Assembly (NCBI GenBank): GCA_016201505.1
Contig: JACQCQ010000009.1
Location: forward strand, 1,991 to 65,990
DNA: 64,000 bases
Source of the DNA: Candidatus Sungiibacteriota bacterium
GTDB taxonomy: Bacteria > Patescibacteriota > Minisyncoccia > Sungbacterales > JACQCQ01
Direction of reading: 5' to 3'
Position 1 is the stretch's first letter. Each line of letters opens with the position of its first letter. Below the pieces are notes generated by a model. The model was not told where the DNA came from and made no database searches. It saw only the letters and a list, made by a program, of their open reading frames with translations. A program made the translations under genes and the position numbers. Of the stretch, positions 28,011-48,098 are shown piece after piece.

Positions 28011-31000
28011 ATGGATATCGGCGAAGTAAAAAATCGAGAAATAGTGGCGGAAATGCAGGAGTCGTATTTGGATTATGCGATGTCGGTTATTGTCTCTCGG
28101 GCTCTGCCCGATGTACGAGACGGATTAAAGCCCGTCCATCGCCGCATTCTCTATGCCATGCATTTACTCCATTTAACGCGCCAATCCAAACATCGAAAAT
28201 CGGCATTGGTGGTTGGCGAGGTGCTGGGTAAATTCCATCCGCACGGGGATGTGGCGGTGTATGACTCAATGGTGCGGCTGGCGCAGGATTTTTCGATGCG
28301 GTACCCCTTAATCGACGGGCAGGGAAATTTCGGTTCGGTGGACGGCGACGGAGCCGCCGCCATGCGGTATTGCATCACCGGCGATACGCGCGTTGTCACA
28401 GATAAAGGCCTTATTCCAATCCAAGAAATTTCCGAGAGCGGGCATGAAGACATCTCAATTTCTGTGTTATCAAAACATAGCATTCAAAATAAAGCGACCA
28501 AATGGTTTGATAGCGGATTTCATCCCACGATTAAAATCGAGACTCGTTCTGGTCAGTCGCTCCAAGGTTCATATAATCACCCTATTTTAATCTGGGCTAA
28601 AAATCCCGTAAGCGGATCGCCTGAATTTCGTTGGAAACTCTTAAGTCAATTGAAAATCGGCGACGTGGCAGTCGTTGATCGCAGGGCCGACACTTTGTGG
28701 CCTAAGGCCGAGCCTTCTCTTTTGCCATACGAGCCCAAAATTCTCGGCAGGAGACAAAAGAAAGTGTTGCCTCAATCTCTGTCTTCTGATCTTAGTTTTC
28801 TCTTAGGTTCATTAACCGCTGAAGGAACCTTAAAAGAACATGCATTGGGATTCTGCAGTAGTGACCTCAATTGGATAGAAGAGTTCAGTCAAAAATGGCA
28901 ACTGGTATTTCCCGATTGCAGATTGCATTCATTCCGGCGCAATCCAAATTCATACGGCAAAAAATCTTATTTTACTCATGAAATTCATTCTCGTCACGTC
29001 ATCGAGTTTCTTAAAAATTTGGGGCTCTCTCCGGTAAAATCAGTCGATCGACAGGTCCCCGGAGTCGTATTTAAAGGCACGAAGTCAACGGTCGCCTCAT
29101 TTTTACGAGCTTATTTTGAAGGCGGCGGGAGCATAAGCTTCAGCGGGAAAATGACAGAGTTGAGCTGTTGCTCGAAGAGTGAGATTCTTTTAAAACAAAT
29201 TCAAATTCTTCTGCTTCGTTTTGGGATCGCCTCCACGCGGCGATATGACCGCTATAAATTAACACACAAAATTTATATTCGCGGACTGGCTAATTGCCGT
29301 CTCTTCCAAGAAGCCATCGGCTTTAATTCCAAAGAGAAACAAGAAACGCTTGAAATGGCTATTCAAAGATTGCATAAAGAATACCCCGCGACAGATTTTA
29401 TTCCGTTCATCAGCGATTTTGTTCGAACGAATGAAAATCGGGCGGTTCGTTTTCGCGAGCGCAGCTTTATGCATAAGCCTAACTTCGATCGGTACGGCTC
29501 TCTTAAAACAAACGGCGAAGCAATTCTTAACCTTCTTCGACCAAGCATTCAATCGGAAATCGGATTTCTGTTTCAAGAATTAATTGAGCAGAATTATTTC
29601 TTTGATCCGGTGGTAAAAATTGAAGCGGGCGGAGTCCACAGAGTCTATTCTATTAAAGTTGAAAGCACCTGCCACTCATTTGTGGCGAACGGGTTTATCA
29701 ACCATAACACCGAAGCACGGATGGCCGATATCACCGCGCTACTCCTTGAAGACATTGATAAAGAGACCGTTGACTTCGCGGATAACTATGACGGGACGCA
29801 AAAAGAGCCGCGCGTTTTGCCGGCGGCGGTGCCCAATTTGTTACTAAACGGCACGCTCGGGATCGCGGTTGGCATGACCACCAATATTCCGCCGCACAAT
29901 TTAACTGAAGTCATTGATGCGGCCGTAACACTGATTGATAAACCCAAATCCACCAATGATGACCTGCTTGAATATGTAAAGGGACCCGATTTTCCGACGG
30001 GCGGCGTCATCTACAACGAAAAAGAAATTAGGGAGGCTTATGCCACCGGCAAGGGCTCGATTGTGATGCGCGGGGTGGCGGAAATTGGCGAAAAGAAAAA
30101 CGGCTATCAGATCATCATCAGCGAAATCCCCTATCAGGTAAATAAATCCGAGTTAATCGAGAAAATTGCCGATCTCGTAAAAGAAAAAAAGATTGAGGGC
30201 ATCCGCGATCTGCGTGATGGGTCGGATCGGGAAGGTATGCGCATTGAGATTGACCTAAAAGCCGACAGCTATCCGCAGAAAGTTTTAAATAATCTATTTA
30301 CGCATACGGATCTAGAAAAGCGCTTTCATATCAATATGTTGGCGCTCGTCGACGGCATCCAGCCGCAGGTTCTGTCGCTTAAATCGATCCTGGAGGAATA
30401 TTTAAAGCACCGATTTCAAATTGTCACGCGGCGCAGCACATTTGATCTGGCCCGCGCCAAAGACCGCGCTCATATTTTAGAAGGACTGAAAAAAGCGCTC
30501 GACAATATTGATAAAGTTATCGACACGATTAAAAAATCGGCCGATCGGGACGTAGCGCGCGATAATTTAATCAAAAAGTTTTCTTTGTCCGAAAAACAAG
30601 CACTCGCCATTTTGGAGATGCGGCTGGCCACACTTGCTGGTCTCGAGCGGCAGAAAATCGAGGCTGAATTAAAAGAAAAACTGGCCTTAATCCGCGATCT
30701 GGAAGCCTTACTAAAAGATCCAGCCAAAATTCAGACGGTGATTAAAAAAGAATTAGTAGCTACACGCGAGAAATACGGTGATGAGCGGAAGACGAAAGTC
30801 ATCAAATCCGCCGTTCGCGAATTTTCCGATGAAGATTTGATTCCCGAAGAGGAGACACTGGTGGTGGTGACCCGCGGCGGCTACATCAAGCGGGTAAAAC
30901 CGGAATCCTACCGCATGCAAAAGCGCGGCGGCAAGGGGTTGATTGGCATTGAAACGAAAGAAGAAGACGTGGTCGAACATCTAGTTTCGGCGAGCACTCA

Positions 31001-31787
31001 TTCGGATCTTTTGTTTTTTACCTCATCCGGCAAAGTTTTTCAGGTGAAAGCCTATGAGATTCCCGAAGCCTCCAGGACCGCCAAGGGCAAGGCCATTTTT
31101 AATTTCCTTTCGGTAAATCAAGATGAATTAATCACCTCGATTTTAGCTGCTCCCAAAACGCGGGCGCGCCGCGGCGAAAGAGAAAAATCGGAATTCTTTG
31201 TGATGCTAACGCGCCGCGGCGTGATTAAAAAAGTAGAGGCCTCGGCTTTTGGCGATGTGCGACATTCGGGCTTAATCGCCATCGGCTTAAAATCAGATGA
31301 TACGCTGGGCTGGGTTAAATTAACCAATGGCGCCCATGATATTATCGCGGTCACTAAATTGGGCCAGGCCATCCGGTTCTCCGAGCGTGATGTCCGAGCC
31401 ATGGGACGTACCGCCTCCGGCGTTACCGCCCTGCGGCTTAAAAAATCAGACGAAGTCGTCGGCATGGACGTGGTGATTGATGCCGGCGCTAATCTTTTGG
31501 TTATCATGTCGCAAGGCTACGGCAAGAAGACCCCCTTAAAACAATATAAGCGGCAGAAACGCGGCGGCTCGGGCATTAAAACAGCCAAAGTCGTACCCAA
31601 AAACGGCTACGTCATTTCGACTCACGTCATCCAGGCTGAAGAAACCCAACTCGTCTGCATTTCGCGCAAAGGCCAGGTCATTCGGATTGAGCTTTCGGCC
31701 ATTCCAACGCTCGGCCGCGCCACCCAGGGTGTTCGCATCATCCGACTCGAGACCTCGGACGCGCTCGCCTCAATGACGACGTTTTAA
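28011..31787 (+). CDS. gyrA: DNA gyrase subunit A containing an in-frame intein (extein ~812 aa)
   Basis: GyrA N-terminus ([21 protein letters not shown]), active-site AAMRY followed by CITGDTRV (intein N-terminus). ...FINHN|TEARMADI restores the GyrA sequence, and the C-terminal beta-pinwheel repeats follow. Confidence 0.9.
28371..29708 (+). mobile_element. GyrA intein (446 aa) with LAGLIDADG homing-endonuclease domain
   Basis: Cys1 after MRY (canonical gyrA-a insertion site) and C-terminal HN followed by Thr+1. Internal LAGLIDADG-like blocks [10 protein letters not shown] and [12 protein letters not shown]. Confidence 0.8.
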
Positions 31788-32411: not shown

Positions 32412-33719
32412 ATGCTGAAAAATCTCAAATCTAAAATTATAGCTTTCGCTGTTGCGGGGTTTGTCATTTTGTTGGCCATGCTGATTTTGACTGGTGTCAT
32501 TTCGCCGTTTAAAGCTAAGCCCGTCTCCGGCCAAGTTACGGTCTGGGTGCCGCCGCAATATAAGAGCGCCATGGCTCCAATAGTTACTTCTTTTCAATCT
32601 CAATACCCGGCGGTCAAGGTGACGCTAGAGGAAAAAAACGAGACGACCTACGAGACCGATTTAATCAATGCTCTCGCCTCCGGCGCGGGGCCGGATGTCA
32701 TCCTCCTGCCTTCTTCTGATATTGGTCTTTGGCAAAATAAGTTACTCCCCGCTCCTAGAACGAATGTCCTAACACTTGATCAATTTGAGTCCCAAGCCCC
32801 TGACGCGGCGATTGCCGACCTGGTAACGCAAAAAGGCGAGATGCTCGGCCTTCCGCTCTCCGTCGATACGTTGGCGCTCTACTATAATAAGGATTTGTTT
32901 AACGCGGCCAATATCATTAGTCCGCCGCAAACCTGGGATGATTTTGCCGCCGCTTCAGGCCTCATGGTGGCCCGTTTAATAAACGGCGACCTGACTCAAT
33001 CCGGCGCCTCGATCGGAACGGCGCAAAATGTAAATCATTTTTTTGAGATTCTTTCTGAACTGATTTTGCAAACGGGAAATCCGATCGCGACACTGGATGG
33101 GCATGTAACACTCGCGGATAAAACCGGCGACTCCTACCCCGCTCTTTCGGCGCTTAACTTCTACACCTCCTTCGCCGATCCCTCAAATAAAAACTATTCT
33201 TGGACGAATGCCGGCCCCAATTCGCTTGAGGCCTTCGCCCAAGGCCAGGCGGGCATGTATTTCGGCTATGCCGCTGATTTAGAGACGATTATTACCAAAA
33301 ACCCGCATCTTAATTTCAGCGTGGCGCCCTTCCCCCAGCTTGCCAAAGGCAGCCGCAAATCGTTCGCCCGCTATCCGGTTTTAGCGGTCACGCGCGCCTC
33401 GACCAATCCAACTATTGCCTGGGCTTTCATCAGTAATTTTTATACCGCGGCCAATCAAAAAATTCTGATTGACGCGCTTGGCCTTCCGCCGGCGCGGCGC
33501 GATTTGATACATTCGTTGCCGCCGAATAAAATTTTGCGCCCCTTTTATGATCAGGTGCTGTCCGGCCAGTCCTGGCCCATTCCGGATTACGGCCGCGCGC
33601 AGTCTATTTTCCGCACGATGATTGAGTCGGCCGTATCGGGCGGCTCGATTGGTTCGGCTGATGCCATCAGTCGGGCCGCAGGCCAATTAAAACTTTTGTT
33701 AAATCCCAATGGCCAGTAG
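32412..33719 (+). CDS. Extracellular solute-binding protein (ABC transporter, family 1; orphan)
   Basis: N-terminal TM/signal, MalE-like length and composition. No permease genes adjacent. Confidence 0.6.
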   Translation: MLKNLKSKIIAFAVAGFVILLAMLILTGVISPFKAKPVSGQVTVWVPPQYKSAMAPIVTSFQSQYPAVKVTLEEKNETTYETDLINALASGAGPDVILLPSSDIGLWQNKLLPAPRTNVLTLDQFESQAPDAAIADLVTQKGEMLGLPLSVDTLALYYNKDLFNAANIISPPQTWDDFAAASGLMVARLINGDLTQSGASIGTAQNVNHFFEILSELILQTGNPIATLDGHVTLADKTGDSYPALSALNFYTSFADPSNKNYSWTNAGPNSLEAFAQGQAGMYFGYAADLETIITKNPHLNFSVAPFPQLAKGSRKSFARYPVLAVTRASTNPTIAWAFISNFYTAANQKILIDALGLPPARRDLIHSLPPNKILRPFYDQVLSGQSWPIPDYGRAQSIFRTMIESAVSGGSIGSADAISRAAGQLKLLLNPNGQ

Positions 33720-34650
33720 AAAAATAATTATAATCTTTTTTAGTCTCTTGGGGCTCGCGCTGGTTGCTTCGCCGATTCTCGTCATGTCGCAAAGCTCGGG
33801 GATTGTGCCGTGCGGCAACGGCGGCGGGCTTTCTGGCTGGATACCCTGCACCTTCTGCGACTTTTGGGGGCTGTTAAAAAATCTGATTGATTTTATCGCC
33901 GTAAAGTTAGCGCTCCCGCTCGCGGTCATTATGTTCATCTACGCCGGATTTCGCTATGCGTTTTCCGCCGGCAAGGAATCAAACATTAGCGCCGCGCGCG
34001 AGATTTTAACCCAAACGGCGATCGGCCTTTTAATCGTCTTCGGCGTCTATTTCATAACCGATACTTTGATAAAAATTATCGCCGGCGGCGCGCCGAAAGC
34101 CATAGAAAATCTTGGGCCCTGGAGGAATCCTTTTGAGCCCGGCAAATCAATCTGCACGCCACCTGTTTCAGTCCCCATTTCAAAAGAACCTCCCGTTCCT
34201 TACCCCCGATCAAATGATCAGTCAATTCCTTTGCCGCAGGGAACATTGTCACGGGCTGACGCCGTCGCTCGATTACAGGCGGGAGGGGTAGATACGGGGT
34301 TTATCAGCGCCGAATGTTCTCCCGGTGTCGGTCGCGGGTGCACTTCTCTATCCGGCGTTCTACCCTCGACCATTGATGGCGCCGTCGCCCTGCAAAAGGC
34401 CTGTGATGCGGCAACAAGCGGCGAGAGATGCCAATTATTGATTACCGGGGGCACCGAGACGGGGCACTCTGACAACGGCGTTACGCACGCCAGTGGTCAA
34501 AAATTAGATTTTGCAAATTCACCCACTCTCTATCGCTACCTGCAACGCTTGCCTGATATGGGCAATGGCGTTCGGCAAGGACCGGATGGAACACTCTATA
34601 GATTTGAAACTAATCCGTTTCACTGGGATGTCGCATTCCCCAAGAAATAA
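33709..34650 (+). CDS. T4SS-pilin-like (VirB2/TrbC-type) N-terminal domain fused to a peptidase M15-like (D-Ala-D-Ala/L-Ala-D-Glu peptidase) domain
   Basis: Signal peptide, then IVPCGNGGG...CTFCDFW...LPLAVIMFIYAGFRYAFSAGKE..AREILTQTAIGLLIVFGVYFI (the pilin module). C-terminal half carries the M15-like zinc-ligand spacing ITGGTETGH...THASGQKLDF...FHWDV. Confidence 0.5.
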   Translation: MASRKIIIIFFSLLGLALVASPILVMSQSSGIVPCGNGGGLSGWIPCTFCDFWGLLKNLIDFIAVKLALPLAVIMFIYAGFRYAFSAGKESNISAAREILTQTAIGLLIVFGVYFITDTLIKIIAGGAPKAIENLGPWRNPFEPGKSICTPPVSVPISKEPPVPYPRSNDQSIPLPQGTLSRADAVARLQAGGVDTGFISAECSPGVGRGCTSLSGVLPSTIDGAVALQKACDAATSGERCQLLITGGTETGHSDNGVTHASGQKLDFANSPTLYRYLQRLPDMGNGVRQGPDGTLYRFETNPFHWDVAFPKK

Positions 34651-34671
34651 TATTTCGCCTACAATAGACCT

Positions 34672-35529
34672 ATGGAAATTTCAATCATGAAGTCGGGATC
34701 CCGACGTATCGTCGGGATTGTTTCCGCATTTTGTTTCCTGTCGCTTGTTTTCTGTATTCCGGCTTTCACATCTGCTCAAACTGCCTACCCCAATCCGATT
34801 GATCCGATCAACTCCATTCCGGCGCTGGTTGATGGTTTGGCGAATTCAATCAAGCCCATTGTTATCACCTTATCCGCCATTTCGATTTTGATCGGCGCGT
34901 TTTTGTATGTCACTGCGGGCGGGGATGAGAAAAAAATTAAAACAGCCCATGCCGCGCTGACCTATGGTGTTCTGGGCATCATCATCATGCTTTCCGCCAG
35001 CACGATTTCAGAGACCTTAAAAAGTTTTGGCGACCAAGCCAAAGGCAAAAGCCCGCAAGAGTTCCTTGACTTTATCATCAATCTCTTTGGGACGTTAATT
35101 ATGGCGATTTCGGTATTCGCCATTTTGTATGCCGCGTTTCTTTACATCACTTCTGGCGGAGATACCACAAAAGTCTTCCAAGCCAATCGGCTTATTTTAT
35201 ACGCGGTGGTAGGTATCGCTATTGCGGTACTCGCCAAGATCATTCCTAAGGCGTTAGAAACACTCCTTCCCTCCGCCGGTTCAGGCCCGATTTCAAATCA
35301 AATCAGCACGCTCGCTGGCAGAATCGCGCAGGCTTTTGGCACCATCGTGATGGCCGCCTCGGTTCTGGCCGTTCTCTACGCCTCATTCTTATTTGTAACG
35401 GTAACAGAGGATTCTGATCGGGCCACGACCGCGCGCCGCGTTCTGCTCTATGCCTTAATCGGCGTAGCAGTTGGCCTTTTGGCGTATATCATTCCAAATG
35501 TCATTTTGAAATTTGCCCAGTCGTTATAG
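34672..35529 (+). CDS. Protein with three tandem T4SS-pilin-like modules
   Basis: Signal peptide then three repeats of [TM helix]-LY(V/I)T(A/S)GGDxxK-[TM helix], for example ILIGAFLYVTAGGDEKKIKTAHAALTYGVLGIIIMLSA. Confidence 0.5.
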   Translation: MEISIMKSGSRRIVGIVSAFCFLSLVFCIPAFTSAQTAYPNPIDPINSIPALVDGLANSIKPIVITLSAISILIGAFLYVTAGGDEKKIKTAHAALTYGVLGIIIMLSASTISETLKSFGDQAKGKSPQEFLDFIINLFGTLIMAISVFAILYAAFLYITSGGDTTKVFQANRLILYAVVGIAIAVLAKIIPKALETLLPSAGSGPISNQISTLAGRIAQAFGTIVMAASVLAVLYASFLFVTVTEDSDRATTARRVLLYALIGVAVGLLAYIIPNVILKFAQSL

Positions 35530-35590
35530 TACCTTTCTGCGGCTGGGGATAAGTTTTTTCTAAAGTAAGGGTCGATTCTATATAATAAAG

Positions 35591-36013
35591 ATGCTGGAAA
35601 GTACTCAATTTTTGGTTAAGAATTTTATGAAATATCACTCATTACTCAAAATAGGCACTGTGGCGACAGTTGTTGTTTCGTTAGGTCTTTTTATCCCGCA
35701 AATCTCCGGTGCGGCTGCGGTCCCTACGCCATCGTATGCGCCAAATAATACCGGCACCATAAGTGATTTTCCGAATTTTATCTCGAGACTAGGTGGGAAC
35801 GTTGCTAATATTTTTGGGACACTTATTTTGGCTATTTCTGTGATTATGATTCTCTATTCAGCTTTTTTATTTCTCACTGCACAGGGTGATGCGACAAAAC
35901 TTACCACAGCTCGTAACGTGTTACTTTTTGCTTTGGTTGGTGTAGCAGTAGCATTGCTGGCATATATTCTGCCGAATGCTGTAAGTAATTTTGTTCAAAC
36001 AAACGTACAATAG
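35591..36013 (+). CDS. T4SS-pilin-like protein (single module)
   Basis: Signal peptide then ILAISVIMILYSAFLFLTAQGDATKLTTARNVLLFALVGVAVALLAYILPN. Possible start at 35627. Confidence 0.5.
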   Translation: MLESTQFLVKNFMKYHSLLKIGTVATVVVSLGLFIPQISGAAAVPTPSYAPNNTGTISDFPNFISRLGGNVANIFGTLILAISVIMILYSAFLFLTAQGDATKLTTARNVLLFALVGVAVALLAYILPNAVSNFVQTNVQ

Positions 36014-36032
36014 TCATACAGCAAACAAGAAA

Positions 36033-36093
36033 CCGCCCAGCTCCCCTTGCGGGGAACTGGGCGGTCTTCGTTTCGCGGGGCATCCGCGAAACG
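36033..36093. terminator. Two consecutive hairpins forming a bidirectional terminator between convergent genes
   Basis: ccgcccagctcccc-ttgc-ggggaactgggcgg and cgtttcgcgg-ggcat-ccgcgaaacg. Confidence 0.6.
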
Positions 36094-36099
36094 GTTGGG

Positions 36100-37356
36100 T
36101 CAGGATTTCGCTTGCGGCGTTACCCTGACCGTGAAGACGGCTCGCGCGACTTTGTCGCGCGAGCGCTCCTGAACAAGAAGACGCAGGTCGGAGAGCCCAG
36201 GTTTCTCCGGCAAGGGGAAACTTCCCATTGTCGGCTCGCCGTTTTGGCAGGGCCAGCGAACGTTCTCGTACTTCCATTCGCTGGTTTCCGCGTTGAACGT
36301 CGCGAGATTGGTCTCGACATCGCAAAGAGCAACCGGCAGGCCGTTACCGGCCCTTTCGCCAGTCAGTCCCTCGCGGTACTCGAGCACCGACTCCGATTTG
36401 GCGAGAATCGGCCGCGAGACCAGTTTCCACTTGGTGTCGGTCGGCTGGATGACGACGTCCTCCCGCCAAGCCTCGACCGCGATCTGCCGCGGCGTGAAGC
36501 TTGTCGCCGGCCGCGACGTGATCCAGTTGTGCCCCCACATGAGACCAAGTCCCACCAGGAGCACAAGCACTGCGAGCGCTACCTTCTGTGTGAACCAGCT
36601 AAGCACCACCGCCGTCTTGGTACCGGCTGCAGCGACTTGCCGCTTCTCTCTCATCGCGAGGATGATCAAGATGGCGGCAACGGCAACAGCGAGGAACCGG
36701 AGGATGGTGGCGTAAGGCGTCCACCAGCTGGACGAAAAGATCGTCTGCTTATCGAAGACCGTCCGCCAGCTTGCATCGCTCGGATACAGCCAACAGCCGA
36801 GGCTCACCAGCACATGGATCGCGAAGATGACAAGGACCAATTTCTTGATCCGTCGCGATCCACTCTGGTCCCAAACCCCGTAGAAAATTGCCAACCCGAT
36901 GCAGCCGAGGAAGACCATGAAGGCAACCTCGGGCCGCTCATCAACGGGGAGCCAGACTTCGGCGAAGCCGATCATCATCAGGACGCAGACGACGCCTGCG
37001 GCGAGTTGTAGATACTTTTTTGCCGACTCGATGATGATGTGGGCGATGCGCTCGTCTCGCACGGGCGACGTAGCCGGTTGCCGATTGAACAGAGTCTCCA
37101 GCTCGATACCGATCACGGCACGCCGCCACTCGAGCCAGAAGAAGATTCCCATGCCGATCGGCATGGCGACGTCGAGCGCCACGAGCTTCTGGTAGAAGCC
37201 GTAGGCTCCGGCGATTCCGCCTGCCAGGATCAGCCCGAGCGTAGCAAGAACGGCCACGAAAACCGAGTTCCGCAGCCGGCGCAGCTCGGTCAGGTGCCAG
37301 GTCAGAGCCTCCTGGATCGTGTGGATAATGGTCATGAAGGTTTGCATTAGATCCAC
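36100..37356 (-). CDS. Hypothetical polytopic membrane protein with C-terminal soluble domain (GC-rich islet; third gene of an overlapping operon)
   Basis: ~8 TM helices; its start overlaps the upstream gene's stop by 10 nt; GC-rich. Confidence 0.5.
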   Translation of the reverse strand: MDLMQTFMTIIHTIQEALTWHLTELRRLRNSVFVAVLATLGLILAGGIAGAYGFYQKLVALDVAMPIGMGIFFWLEWRRAVIGIELETLFNRQPATSPVRDERIAHIIIESAKKYLQLAAGVVCVLMMIGFAEVWLPVDERPEVAFMVFLGCIGLAIFYGVWDQSGSRRIKKLVLVIFAIHVLVSLGCWLYPSDASWRTVFDKQTIFSSSWWTPYATILRFLAVAVAAILIILAMREKRQVAAAGTKTAVVLSWFTQKVALAVLVLLVGLGLMWGHNWITSRPATSFTPRQIAVEAWREDVVIQPTDTKWKLVSRPILAKSESVLEYREGLTGERAGNGLPVALCDVETNLATFNAETSEWKYENVRWPCQNGEPTMGSFPLPEKPGLSDLRLLVQERSRDKVARAVFTVRVTPQAKS

Positions 37357-37958
37357 CTCCTCCAGCCGCGGGCGTTTCGAGCGTTGATGGCCCGGAGGCC
37401 ATAAGCAATTCGATCGATTTGCTGTGCGACCGCCTGGTCAGCCGCAGCCAGTCTCGGCAGTGTCGTTTGGGCTACCACATGGATGGCCATCTTCAGAAAC
37501 TCGGCCAGTCCATCATTATGGTAGATTCCGAGACGTGCGATGAAGTTCGCGACTCCCTGTCGGGGGTCGGAATCCCAGAGCAACTGCTCAAGCTCAGGGT
37601 AAACCTTAGCACGGTCTCGCTGGGGAACCTTCGTCAACATGTTGACGATCCAGTTCTCCCGCGTGTACGTGTCACCGACAGGGATGAATCCCCCTTCGGT
37701 ATTCATGTACTCGAGGAGCTGCACGATCCTCTGGCAGTTGAACCTGCCGAGGTCCTGTACCATCTCGATGCGGTCGGTATCGAAGATGTGGCCGAGTTCT
37801 CGGCCAAACCCCTCCGCCGCACGCCGGTGGCGCTCTTTCGGGTCGCTCGTCATCTCGGCATCAGGATTATGCTTGTGCCAGAAATGTAACCCGACCCCGA
37901 GAACGCTCCAGAACAGCGTTTCCGTCCCGACCTCTTTCAGCCAGTCAGGGATTCTCAT
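37347..37958 (-). CDS. Hypothetical protein (GC-rich islet; second gene of the operon)
   Basis: ATGA start/stop overlap with the upstream gene; His-rich N-terminus (HFWHKHNPD). No confident family. Confidence 0.5.
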   Translation of the reverse strand: MRIPDWLKEVGTETLFWSVLGVGLHFWHKHNPDAEMTSDPKERHRRAAEGFGRELGHIFDTDRIEMVQDLGRFNCQRIVQLLEYMNTEGGFIPVGDTYTRENWIVNMLTKVPQRDRAKVYPELEQLLWDSDPRQGVANFIARLGIYHNDGLAEFLKMAIHVVAQTTLPRLAAADQAVAQQIDRIAYGLRAINARNARGWRRWI

Positions 37959-38551
37959 GGCTTCAGTCCTTTCAGCCAGCTCTTGTCAGCCGGCCCGAAG
38001 TTTTTCCCCGGGAGAATTTTCTCCCAGATGAGTTCATCGTTGAGTCCGGCGATGACGCGAACGAGTGCACCCTCGTTTCCCGTGAAGGAAAATGAGAGCG
38101 AACCATCCGCTTCAGTCTTGAGGTTCGACTGCTTGATTCCCGCGACCTCGACAGTCACGGGACAGTCACCGATCAGCTGATCATCCGCGTCCGCGGCGCT
38201 GATAAGAAGACGCCAGTTGCCCGGCTCGCCCGTGTCGCTCACGCGGAGCTTCGCGGGCTTCTTCTTTTCCCTCATCTTCGGGGTCTCGATCGTCTCACGC
38301 GCATGATCTTCCAAAGCTTCGCACTGCGCGGTGATGAGATAGTTCCCCGCGGCAAGACCCGACCATTTGTAATTTGCACGACCGTGGTCGCTTGTCCGCC
38401 TTTCCTCTTGCGCGGCGATGCCGTTCAAAAAAAAGGTGACACGCTTGTTGATGTCTGGTTGCCTGCGTTCTCTTACGAGAACAGTCGCTTCGACTGTCCC
38501 CATGTCACCTTCTTTATTGGCGACGGTTTTGAGACTTATCCAGTCCGCCAT
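37955..38551 (-). CDS. Hypothetical protein with two carboxypeptidase-regulatory-like (transthyretin-like beta-sandwich) repeats (GC-rich islet; first gene of the operon)
   Basis: SD AGGAGGA upstream; repeats VTFFLNG..SGLAAGNYLITAQ and VTVEVAG..TEADGSLSFSF. Confidence 0.45.
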   Translation of the reverse strand: MADWISLKTVANKEGDMGTVEATVLVRERRQPDINKRVTFFLNGIAAQEERRTSDHGRANYKWSGLAAGNYLITAQCEALEDHARETIETPKMREKKKPAKLRVSDTGEPGNWRLLISAADADDQLIGDCPVTVEVAGIKQSNLKTEADGSLSFSFTGNEGALVRVIAGLNDELIWEKILPGKNFGPADKSWLKGLKP

Positions 38552-38823
38552 TTTCCGATCCTCCTGCCGCGAATGCGGCGTCCACGTTCTCTACGTGGGT
38601 TAAGGTTAGATTCGTTTGCTTGCGCTCGTATCTATCGGAAAAGGCAGTTTTTGCCTTTTGTTAGTATATTCAGCTGTCAAACAGCCTTAGTTAAGCCAAA
38701 TTTCAGGCTCAACCAACTGGCCGCTATTTTAAACTATAATTATAGTAAAAGTCAACCGCTTGTCATGGTTCAATAGCTTGGCGATAATTTACCAAAATCT
38801 AACTCCCCGTACCTACCGATATC

Positions 38824-38851
38824 TCCCTATAGTACAATATAGGTATGAAGT
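38824..38851. repeat. Inverted-repeat motif copy (RC: attgtactatagggagatatcggtagg) left of the PaaX-like gene
   Basis: Pairs with 39415-39441. A third, near-identical copy lies at 48066-48098. Confidence 0.5.
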
Positions 38852-39393
38852 CTAAGATGGGGCCCATCCAAAGTTCATTGCTTGAGGCGTTGTCCGAACT
38901 CGGCACAATCACCTACGCGGTTTTGACATCGTCGAGGAACACAAAGCTCCTGCGGCGTAAACTCGGCGCGTATGGAGTACCCAATCCGGCATTTCGCCGT
39001 TCTCTGGAGAAACTTAAGGAACGCGGCTACGTGGAATTTAAAATTATCCAGGGGGAAGAATATTTGGTACTGTCGAAATCAGGCAAAGAAAAAATGAAGA
39101 GTAAGGAAGTGCTTGAATTAAAATTGCCTCGGCAGCCAAAGTGGGACAAGAAGTGGCGCGTCATACTGTTTGATATCCCCGAGCGTTTTAAAACGGCGAG
39201 GCGTGCACTCTCATTTCAATTGCGATCGATGGGGGCCGTTCCGTTTCAGAAAAGTGTCTTTGTCTTCCCCTACCATTGCAAAAAAGAAGTCGAGTTTGTG
39301 TCAAATTTTTTCGGCGTGGGGCCATACATTCGTTATATGGAAGCCAAGATTATGGGCGATGACGAATCTTTGCGAAAGCACTTTAACCTTTGA
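38845..39393 (+). CDS. PaaX-like regulator: winged-HTH N-domain plus Cas2/VapD-fold-like C-domain
   Basis: C-domain WRVILFDIPERFKTARRALSFQLRSMGAVPFQKSVFVFP follows the Cas2/PaaX pattern (hhhhYDI..RR..L...L...G.R.Q.SVF). Family assignment is from memory. Confidence 0.45.
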   Translation: MKSKMGPIQSSLLEALSELGTITYAVLTSSRNTKLLRRKLGAYGVPNPAFRRSLEKLKERGYVEFKIIQGEEYLVLSKSGKEKMKSKEVLELKLPRQPKWDKKWRVILFDIPERFKTARRALSFQLRSMGAVPFQKSVFVFPYHCKKEVEFVSNFFGVGPYIRYMEAKIMGDDESLRKHFNL

Positions 39394-39414
39394 CACAGCC
39401 GACACGACCGATAG

Positions 39415-39441
39415 CAAACTATAGGGAGATATAGGTCGGTT
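39415..39441. repeat. Inverted-repeat motif copy (aaactatagggagatataggtcgg) right of the PaaX-like gene
   Basis: Shares the 14-nt core actatagggagata in opposite orientation with 38826-38839. Confidence 0.5.
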
Positions 39442-39644
39442 GTGTCGATGGGCCAGAGTTTCAAATTTGATGCTAAGACGGTATGCTGACGGAGCGCCGA
39501 GATGGCGGAACCCAGCACCAAATTCCGAGATGAGAAAAACTTTCATATTGCCCGTGGTCATGTCTTTAATTCATCCTGATCTGATTTGCGGATAAATTTG
39601 TAGAATTGATGCTGGGCGAGCTGGTATATCTACCCCGTACCAAT

Positions 39645-39726
39645 GCCTCTGTGGCGGAACTGGAATACGCGCGCGGCTTAGAACCGCGTGGGGAAACCCT
39701 TACAGGTTCAAATCCTGTCAGAGGCA
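39645..39726 (+). tRNA. tRNA-Leu (anticodon TAG), embedded in an extended hairpin
   Basis: ggcggaactggaatacgcgc D-arm typical of tRNA-Leu, anticodon loop cTTAGaa, long variable arm, T-loop ttcaaat. Flanks ccccgtaccaat and attggtacgggg extend the acceptor stem by 12 bp. Confidence 0.85.
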
Positions 39727-39749
39727 TTGGTACGGGGCGCGTACGGCCT

Positions 39750-47983: not shown

Positions 47984-48065
47984 TCGCTGGAAACACTCTG
48001 GCAAAACGCCGAAGAGACGAAATCAAAAAGAATGAATTGAAATTAGTCTCGTCTTAGACCTCATA

Positions 48066-48098
48066 CCGATATTGTACTATAGGGTAATATAGGTATAT
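48066..48098. repeat. Third copy of the attgtactataggg... motif
   Basis: cataccgatattgtactatagggtaatataggtat matches the RC of 38824-38851 at 22 of 23 positions. Confidence 0.5.

Follow-up and report, generated by a model that had tools for sequence, protein, structure and literature searches.

A translationally coupled, fast-evolving three-gene locus beside VirB2-like pilin genes in Patescibacteria, and its possible role as an envelope module

Patescibacteria carry an MPF_FATA-like type IV secretion system (T4SS) with arrays of VirB2-like pilin genes whose paralogues are highly variable, and epibiotic growth is reported to require the type IV secretion genes and the pilin arrays in the one lineage tested genetically (Quinonero-Coronel et al., 2025; PMC12102498). 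Homologues of VirB6 and VirB8 are detected in a minority of genomes only, VirB6 amounting to 480 proteins in a dataset with 2,474 virB4 genes (PMC12102498). This article deals with a three-gene operon that lies beside such pilin genes in a 64,000-nucleotide (nt) stretch of contig JACQCQ010000009.1, from a Candidatus Sungbacteria metagenome-assembled genome (MAG). The whole stretch is called the window, genes A, B and C (database locus tags HY220_02280/85/90, on a contig of 140,836 bp) are called the triad, and L-numbers designate other loci. The triad is read here, tentatively, as a lineage-specific, vertically retained and extremely fast-evolving envelope module of Patescibacteria of the Paceibacteria/Sungbacteria type, which may work with the VirB2-like pilin array; what is said of its function is drawn from sequence, topology and gene neighborhood. 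Patescibacteria depend on other microbes, and VirB6, VirB8 and adhesins are unrecognizable in most of their genomes. Being conserved, coupled, membrane-anchored, pilin-adjacent and fast-evolving, the triad is a concrete candidate for a missing T4SS part or for a host-specificity determinant. Even without a link to the pilus, it would be a clearly bounded hypervariable locus from a phylum about which little is understood.

How does this locus compare with the systems already described? It resembles the patescibacterial T4SS in that it adjoins two to four PF18895/VirB2-like pilin genes in Paceibacteria-type genomes and that, in locus L005, it lies by genes for a VirB4-type ATPase, a TraC-like protein and PrgI near dnaA, which is the published chromosomal arrangement (PMC12102498). 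In contrast, no A-, B- or C-like components appear among those listed in the portions of the study drawn on here (PMC12102498), the triad is a separate convergent operon, and no T4SS ATPase is encoded within the 64-kb window. A second comparison is with VirB6/TrbL, including extended VirB6 (F-plasmid TraG): C is polytopic, is encoded by pilin genes, and joins a conserved transmembrane core to a variable non-membrane extension. F-plasmid TraG is an extended VirB6-type protein with a variable extracytoplasmic domain. In the Agrobacterium virB operon virB5 comes before virB6, and in the triad, too, a helical-protein gene (B) stands just before a polytopic-protein gene (C). Contrary to VirB6/TrbL, however, C shows no detected similarity to these proteins, its predicted topology is opposite, it is encoded outside a T4SS operon, and it has 5–7 transmembrane helices with long cytoplasmic helical extensions. 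By position and architecture, VirB5-VirB6 next to virB2 would be the closest analogue, the analogy being functional at most.

Two other kinds of system come to mind. Like the intimin/invasin Big_1 adhesins, A has tandem Big_1-type domains, and the A-family profile matches intimin crystal structures; unlike them, it has no signal peptide, beta-barrel, LPXTG anchor or lectin-like tip domain, measures merely ~200 amino acids (aa), and scores below the curated Pfam cut-off. With variable surface-antigen or receptor cassettes, such as pilin and O-antigen loci, the triad shares conserved flanks and promoter, hyper-divergent coding sequence, atypical guanine-plus-cytosine (GC) content and possible B/C reshuffling. 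It differs from them in that A and B, which evolve fastest, have a predicted cytoplasmic location, and no silent cassettes are seen nearby. No paper describing the triad was found in the literature. The preliminary description, made from the letters of the window alone, had recognized no known system with this architecture, and this holds: B and C are unmatched in Pfam, NCBIfam, PHROGs, PADLOC, PDB sequences and folds, phages, plasmids and IMG/VR.

The features of the triad are the following.

37955–38551, minus strand: gene A, 198 aa, two predicted tandem Big_1/intimin-type Ig-like domains (open reading frame, Pfam and family profile)
37347–37958, minus strand: gene B, 203 aa, predicted to be all-helical, undescribed family (open reading frame; no family match)
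36100–37347, minus strand: gene C, membrane protein with seven predicted transmembrane helices, 415 aa from the ATG at 37347, 418 aa if from the GTG at 37356 (open reading frame, hydropathy and HMMER)
37345–37365, minus strand: B/C coupling junction, with the ribosome-binding site GGAGGAGG within the last codons of B, then TAATG
38559–38565, minus strand: ribosome-binding site of A, AGGAGGA, 7 nt 5′ of the ATG (read from the sequence)
38726–38755, minus strand: probable triad promoter, putative and sigma-70-like, TTGACT-18 nt-TAAAAT (consensus scan)
38766–38739, minus strand: overlapping alternative promoter, putative and sigma-70-like, ATGACA-16 nt-TATAAT (consensus scan)
36030–36093, minus strand: double hairpin terminator made of two adjacent hairpins, 36093–36069 and 36067–36030

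A, B and C are one transcription and translation unit. In the open reading frame (ORF) list of the window the three genes follow one another on the minus strand, as first described, with 198 aa (37955–38551), 203 aa (37347–37958) and 418 aa (36100–37356), and all three frames have the coding-type pattern of GC by codon position (GC1>GC2<GC3). A and B overlap by the 4-nt ATGA already reported. The double terminator that had been placed on one side of the operon is borne out by its fold energy of -53.9 kcal/mol (z = -7.7), with a T-run after the second hairpin. Since the convergent pilin gene stops at 36013, this terminator can act in both directions. On the other side, the AT-rich leader, initially given as 275 bp, is an AT-rich intergenic region of 293 bp (GC 0.42) with a predicted 5′ untranslated region of ~170 nt, and the ribosome-binding region of A is kept in L022. 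In the triad leader, Rfam gave no riboswitch or small RNA. Its only match in the operon was Pseudomonas small RNA P36 on the terminator hairpins (36037–36097, minus strand), which at 30.1 bits stays below the gathering score of 36 and is most likely a chance match to GC-rich stem-loops.

At the junction of B and C, two start codons of C have to be considered. The GTG at 37356 directly abuts GGAGGAGG, and the 10-nt B/C overlap first proposed arises only with this start. The ATG at 37347, 8 nt after GGAGGAGG, overlaps the stop codon of B by 1 nt (TAATG). In L022, the closest relative, the junction reads GGAGG-tggttc-TAATG, laid out as in the window, and L018 and L015 also have TAATG. This Shine-Dalgarno spacing and the recurrence of TAATG in the three loci place the start of C at the ATG at 37347, giving a protein of 415 aa; with this better-supported start the overlap is of 1 nt. 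Judging from the sequence, either start would imply translational coupling with B. B and C are thus predicted to be made in coupled fashion, because the ribosome-binding site and the start codon of C sit within the last codons of B.

In most other loci B ends with ...K-G-(G)-W-R-S-W-L-D-F and a stop codon, and the final base of its Ser codon, together with the TG of the Trp codon, supplies the ATG of C. The Lys-Gly-Gly codons of B (AAAGGAGG) are the Shine-Dalgarno sequence of C, and the 13 nt past the ATG are read twice, as WLDF and stop in B and as (M)AGFL in C, so that 16 nt in total are dual-coded. The dual-coded junction lies at 1572–1587 in L001, with equivalents in L003, L004, L005, L007, L013, L020 and L021; the window, L015, L018 and L022 have TAATG instead. 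Double use of the junction probably accounts for part of the conservation of the B and C termini. This is a clear case of dual-coded gene overlap, in which a conserved B tail supplies the ribosome-binding site, start codon and first residues of C. In L011 (167–1681), B and C form a single 504-aa ORF, which is either a natural fusion or an assembly or frameshift artefact.

At first sight the three proteins looked like orphans: a word-indexed search of A, B and C against 5.8 billion sequences returned only the proteins themselves. This impression was an artefact of the sensitivity of word-indexed searching, since an exhaustive HMMER search with C against 1.84 billion cluster representatives found 24 relatives (E = 1e-15 to 1e-3, 24–39% identity), all of which align to residues ~14–190 of C. 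The loci examined were the contigs of these relatives and those obtained from pattern scans with a four-sequence alignment. Wherever upstream sequence exists, a B-type gene (~180–250 aa) is found directly upstream of C. The B-C pair, usually with A, is thus kept in 17 further non-redundant loci, and the gene-neighborhood search finds the triad in many loci of Patescibacteria. Ten other loci have an A-type gene upstream of B (L001, L004, L005, L006, L007, L013, L015, L018, L020 and L022/L023), L019 has a partial ORF there, and in L008, from a Candidatus Paceibacterota MAG, a XerC/D-like recombinase takes the place of A. The window has the arrangement that defines the family, a C-type N-terminal transmembrane module preceded by a coupled B-type helical gene, and in the loci read the three ORFs are uninterrupted and coupled.

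The homology of A and B across loci was established by transitive BLASTP through intermediates; a direct BLASTP of window A and B against their L001 neighbors gave no match. Window A is 35% identical to A of L005 (E = 1e-17) and window B 31% identical to B of L003 (E = 1e-20), while B of L020, L013 and L005 match window B with E = 1e-10 to 1e-14. In L008 (8087–8977) and L015 (4532–5425), which are otherwise unrelated, the gene directly upstream of the module encodes a XerC/D-type tyrosine recombinase.

For C, hydropathy and the positive-inside rule predict seven transmembrane helices, against the eight or so first counted, with the N-terminus inside and the C-terminal ~150 aa outside; this predicted extracellular domain carries two Cys. 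The conserved N-terminal core comprises five of the helices, and AlphaFold2 (AF2) with family alignment A1 models residues 1–190 at a predicted local distance difference test (pLDDT) score of 72–92. Most members of the family have a predicted N-in, C-out topology with five or seven transmembrane helices. The family motifs include W-H-x-x-E-x-RRLRNS before the first helix, WRRxxIGxE after the second, and further on Y(I/L)RLVAAxLASE, LWLPAHxNP and WQxGxxWWPK. Some are degenerate in window C (VWLPVDERP in place of LWLPAHKNP, for example), which argues against a conserved catalytic site. The tails, ~100–250 residues long, are mutually unalignable. They contain 0, 2 or 4 Cys in all but one member, and 2 or 4 in 17 of 25; such even counts fit disulfide-bonded extracellular domains.

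No described protein was found behind C. Window C has no Pfam match at E ≤ 1. Foldseek of the C model against the PDB gave a best E of 0.2 with TM-scores below 0.3, and against BFVD a best E of 0.006 with a TM-score of 0.18. A cluster of ABC-exporter transmembrane domains among the fold matches was discounted (TM-scores below 0.2). A Wzy_C/O-antigen-ligase role was likewise set aside, the matches (2 of 25 members, E = 0.016) being taken as noise, as was the NCBIfam model AmaP (19 bits against a cut-off of 55).

B is a predicted all-helical protein ending in a basic, Trp-containing tail (RGWRRWI). Its single-sequence AF2 model is all helix but unreliable (pLDDT 42). It has no hydrophobic signal segment (top 19-residue hydropathy 0.95) and no family in Pfam, NCBIfam, PHROGs or PADLOC, and Pfam gave no consistent family across 13 B members. 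The B family profile found RidL as its best match among PDB sequences (E = 0.014), with no T4SS protein listed. B had been called His-rich, which it is not: only 7 of its 203 residues are His, and the HFWHKHNPD stretch falls within a non-conserved N-terminal segment. At least three subtypes of B exist, and they track the similarity of the C N-terminal module only in part. L008 and L013 are closest in C, yet have different B types, and the Spearman correlation of the B and C N-terminal similarity matrices is 0.48. B and C are thereby defined as two protein families without an entry in current family libraries.

A is, by sequence, a predicted intimin-type tandem Ig protein. Pfam gives Big_1 (PF02369) at E = 1.4e-6 and 28.7 bits, below the gathering cut-off of 34.9, and Big_3_5 at E = 8e-5, also below its cut-off. 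Weak Big_1 matches recur in the A homologues of L020, L015, L022/L023 and others. The A-family profile A7, for which ten A homologues were aligned, finds intimin 6tpl_A in two stretches (E = 5.7e-6) and, more weakly, 6tqd_A and 1f00_I. Two beta-sandwich domains had been predicted from the outset, and these stand; their assignment to transthyretin-like or carboxypeptidase-regulatory-like repeats does not, as CarboxypepD_reg reaches E = 0.095 only and the Big_1/intimin Ig fold is better supported. Profile searches thus connect A to intimin, while profile and fold searches give no characterized homologue for B and C. A has neither a signal peptide nor a transmembrane helix (top 19-residue hydropathy 0.97), and no relatedness of A to B was found by hhalign (probability 0.05).

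The neighborhood of the triad brings in the pilins.

33709–36013, plus strand: three VirB2-like pilin genes of 313, 285 and 140 aa, convergent with C (Pfam T4SS_pilin)
32412–33719, plus strand: gene for an SBP_bac_1 solute-binding protein (SBP), overlapping the first pilin gene (Pfam)

The 285-aa protein reaches 59.2 bits with T4SS_pilin, the other two less. The triad does stand, as originally placed, between a pilin cluster and a Cas2-fold regulator gene by tRNA-Leu, the latter encoding a PaaX_M/Cas2-like-domain protein (64.5 bits). The order SBP, pilins, triad is found again in L001, L008 and L022. Of the 13 loci whose sequence extends far enough past C, 10 have a convergent pilin array shortly after it (the window, L001, L005 with one gene between, L008, L011, L013, L014, L018, L019 and L022), and most of these pilins exceed the gathering cut-off of Pfam PF18895. 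The opposite side of the triad is not constant: the window has a PaaX-like gene and tRNA-Leu there, L005 yidC/R3H, L013 Band_7, L008 and L015 a recombinase, and L020 a sigma factor. The pilin link is the most constant feature of the gene neighborhood and is not incidental. A T4SS cluster (pilin, VirB4-type ATPase, TraC-like, PrgI) near dnaA/dnaN directly adjoins the triad of L005, on the opposite strand, and in L004 a TrwB/VirD4-like gene is near the triad. No VirB4 is within reach of the triad in the window, L001, L008 or L022.

Such surroundings raise the question of whether B and C could be a true VirB5/VirB6 pair, diverged beyond recognition and serving as the platform for VirB2 pilin polymerization. 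As with virB5-virB6, a helical-protein gene here precedes a polytopic one in the company of VirB2-like genes; in the 21 kb read around the L005 T4SS no polytopic membrane protein other than C is encoded; and VirB6 homologues are few in the published dataset when set against virB4 (PMC12102498). This reading is nevertheless very doubtful. None of the 25 C-family members matches Pfam TrbL/VirB6 or TraG_N at E ≤ 0.1, nor does any B or C member match TrbL/VirB6, VirB5-type or TraG_N models at that threshold. PDB sequences should include solved VirB5 and VirB6 chains, and against them the C profile finds nothing at E ≤ 10 and neither family profile finds a T4SS protein. In the Foldseek comparison already mentioned, an R388 T4SS chain comes at rank 47 only (E = 3.7). 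A. tumefaciens VirB6 is reported as N-out/C-in, the opposite of the N-in/C-out predicted for C, and VirB5 is exported while B has no signal peptide. A related and nearly as doubtful proposal would make B and C the platform, so far missing from the patescibacterial T4SS, on which the pilus is nucleated, as functional or perhaps very remote evolutionary counterparts of VirB5/VirB6, with A an intimin-like adhesin exported through it without a Sec signal. If this were true, a hypervariable cassette and a pilin array together would set which host cells the episymbiont attaches to or feeds from.

The divergence of the locus is best seen against L022/L023 (GCA_964494945.1 and GCA_016181625.1), which are syntenic with the window from FtsH to YceG. 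Protein identity between the window and L022 is high in the flanks (L33 91%, gyrA 81%, S1 80%, LactB3 75%, DUF1003 74%), is 61% for a methyltransferase, falls in the variable block (SBP 44%, pilins 36–51%) and is lowest in the triad (C 28%, over the N-terminal 187 aa only; A 27%, partial; B no match). At the DNA level the flanks are 67–81% identical and the triad coding sequence is fully unalignable. Between tRNA-Leu and the pilin genes the only stretch that aligns is the promoter segment 38718–38755, 87% identical over 39 nt. The variable block extends over ~6 kb, from the SBP gene to gene A, the SBP and pilin part corresponding to 32412–36013 in the window and 11220–14439 in L022. The more distant L001 and L008 (gyrA 54%) keep the order gyrA, SBP, pilins, triad, so that the triad is at the orthologous position in four syntenic genomes (L022/L023, L001, L008). 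Orthologous position and conserved promoter together indicate that the triad is not a recent foreign insertion. From the sequence comparison, the locus appears to have been inherited in place, its regulatory DNA kept and its coding DNA turning over extremely fast.

The base composition could suggest otherwise. Triad GC is 0.589 against 0.501 for the window, its GC at third codon positions (GC3) is 0.66–0.78 against ~0.55 for host genes, and triad GC exceeds that of the flanks by 0.02 to 0.11 in all 12 loci measured (the window, L001, L004, L005, L006, L007, L008, L013, L014, L015, L022 and L023), a rise that holds across host genomes of ~40% to 56% GC. The GC-rich islet noticed in the preliminary description is therefore real as a matter of composition. 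That it might be a recently acquired foreign island, or that its ORFs are spurious products of GC-rich DNA, is barely credible and, as stated, refuted. Besides the GC of 0.59 against 0.50 and atypical codon usage, such a view could invoke long antisense ORFs, for example 299 aa at 36112–37011 on the plus strand. But codon-position GC fits the minus-strand frames, and this antisense ORF peaks at codon position 1 and lacks a coding-type pattern. A, B and C are intact and coupled across the loci read, the Ig-like domains of A are detected independently, and both the position and the promoter are conserved, as said above. Exchange of parts between lineages or recombination-associated GC bias could produce both the raised GC and the B/C subtype mismatch.

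No flanking direct repeats or integrase were found near the triad in the window, nor were silent cassettes, a diversity-generating retroelement or an invertible element seen there. A mobile-element reading was rejected, as the window triad has neither repeats nor integrase and recombinase adjacency (L008, L015) is not general. So was a microdiversity hot spot: L015 and L016 differ at nine sites, one of them within the triad.

Extreme divergence at a fixed site with conserved regulatory DNA is also what might be expected of a conflict system (anti-phage defence, exclusion or immunity), in which C would be a membrane effector and A and B sensor and regulator; such a system would be retained at a hot spot, with an arms race and inter-lineage recombination driving its diversity. 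GC and GC3 above the flanks in every locus measured, the recombinase directly upstream in unrelated L008 and L015, and the partial discordance of B and C in L008 and L013 are in its favor. We consider it unlikely. PADLOC gave no trustworthy match (none for A and C, and for B an 18-residue AbiEi match at E = 0.029). PHROGs gave nothing below E = 0.15, neither the 50,697 phage records nor the 72,556 plasmids searched by tblastn contained a match, and no relative came up in two IMG/VR scans. At a typical defence hot spot one finds unrelated systems, whereas here one family occupies one site in all four syntenic genomes, and the triad has no nuclease, NTPase, protease or other enzymatic domain.

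The triad could, on the other hand, be an autonomous variable surface or envelope module with no relation to the pilus. C would then show a diversifying extracellular domain (a receptor, a phage-receptor decoy or a host-recognition domain) with A and B as cytoplasmic partners, and pilin adjacency would come only from the shared descent of one fast-evolving surface block. Indeed the whole SBP-pilin-triad block (32.4–38.6 kb) diverges faster than its housekeeping flanks, L004, L007 and L015 have no adjacent pilin, and the triad is a separate convergent transcription unit. This possibility deserves some weight, though it is on the improbable side: pilin adjacency persists at 54% gyrA identity and where the other flank is rearranged, and the faster divergence of the predicted cytoplasmic A and B, relative to the conserved core of C, is left unaccounted for.

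A module working with the pilin array remains the reading we put forward, and a mechanism may be sketched for it. C would be the membrane-embedded core, its conserved five-helix module and cytoplasmic helices anchoring the complex, and its variable, disulfide-bonded C-terminal domain would face outward to touch pilins, the pilus base or the host-cell surface. B could be a cytoplasmic or peripheral helical partner bound to the conserved N-terminal cytoplasmic helix of C. A may be a cytoplasmic scaffold, or else a cargo or adhesin exported by a non-Sec route, via the T4SS or C. Rapid divergence would reflect co-evolution with equally variable pilins or with the host surface to which episymbionts attach.

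Several observations weigh against this reading. The pilin link is one of gene neighborhood only, the triad being convergent and not co-transcribed with the pilin genes, and L004, L007 and L015 have no pilin beside it. No VirB4 or other T4SS ATPase is found within the 64-kb window, whose remaining genes are housekeeping ones, and searches by sequence and by fold revealed no similarity of B or C to a T4SS component. A and B evolve fastest although their predicted location is the cytoplasm, a pattern that conflict systems or secreted effectors explain more easily than a structural scaffold does. Triad GC3 is higher than that of the flanking genes in 7 of 7 loci tested (+0.04 to +0.18), which the proposed model does not account for. 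Finally, the C-terminal domain of C, beyond residue 190, is modelled by AF2 at low confidence.

Other elements of the window deserve mention. The gyrA gene (28011–31787, 1258 aa) is split by an intein with a LAGLIDADG homing-endonuclease domain (Pfam Intein_splicing, LAGLIDADG_3); the gyrA orthologues of L001, L008 and L022 (809–831 aa) are without it. On the other side of the triad, the motif ATTGTACTATAGGGAGATA, previously assigned to the triad leader, belongs to the neighboring PaaX-like gene (38845–39393). It lies 6 nt upstream of this divergent gene and is part of the repeat that brackets it, and L022/L023 have no such gene at the orthologous site, so that the motif is not a feature of the triad leader. 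The repeat, 34–44 nt long with CTATAGGGAGATA/TATAGTACAAT, is in inverted orientation around the gene (copies at 38811–38857 and 39407–39440), and one copy takes in the first 13 nt of the gene. A third copy, at 48052–48095 by tRNA-Val, carries ATGAGGTCTAAGA followed by a 13-codon ORF only. The PaaX-like gene has the look of a small mobile unit or inserted cassette whose ends are inverted repeats, or else of a gene between its own operator sites. Beyond it, a perfect 19-nt inverted repeat, CCCCGTACCAATGCCTCTG and CAGAGGCATTGGTACGGGG (39633–39737), flanks and overlaps the ends of tRNA-Leu (39644–39727) and lengthens the pairing of its acceptor stem past the tRNA.

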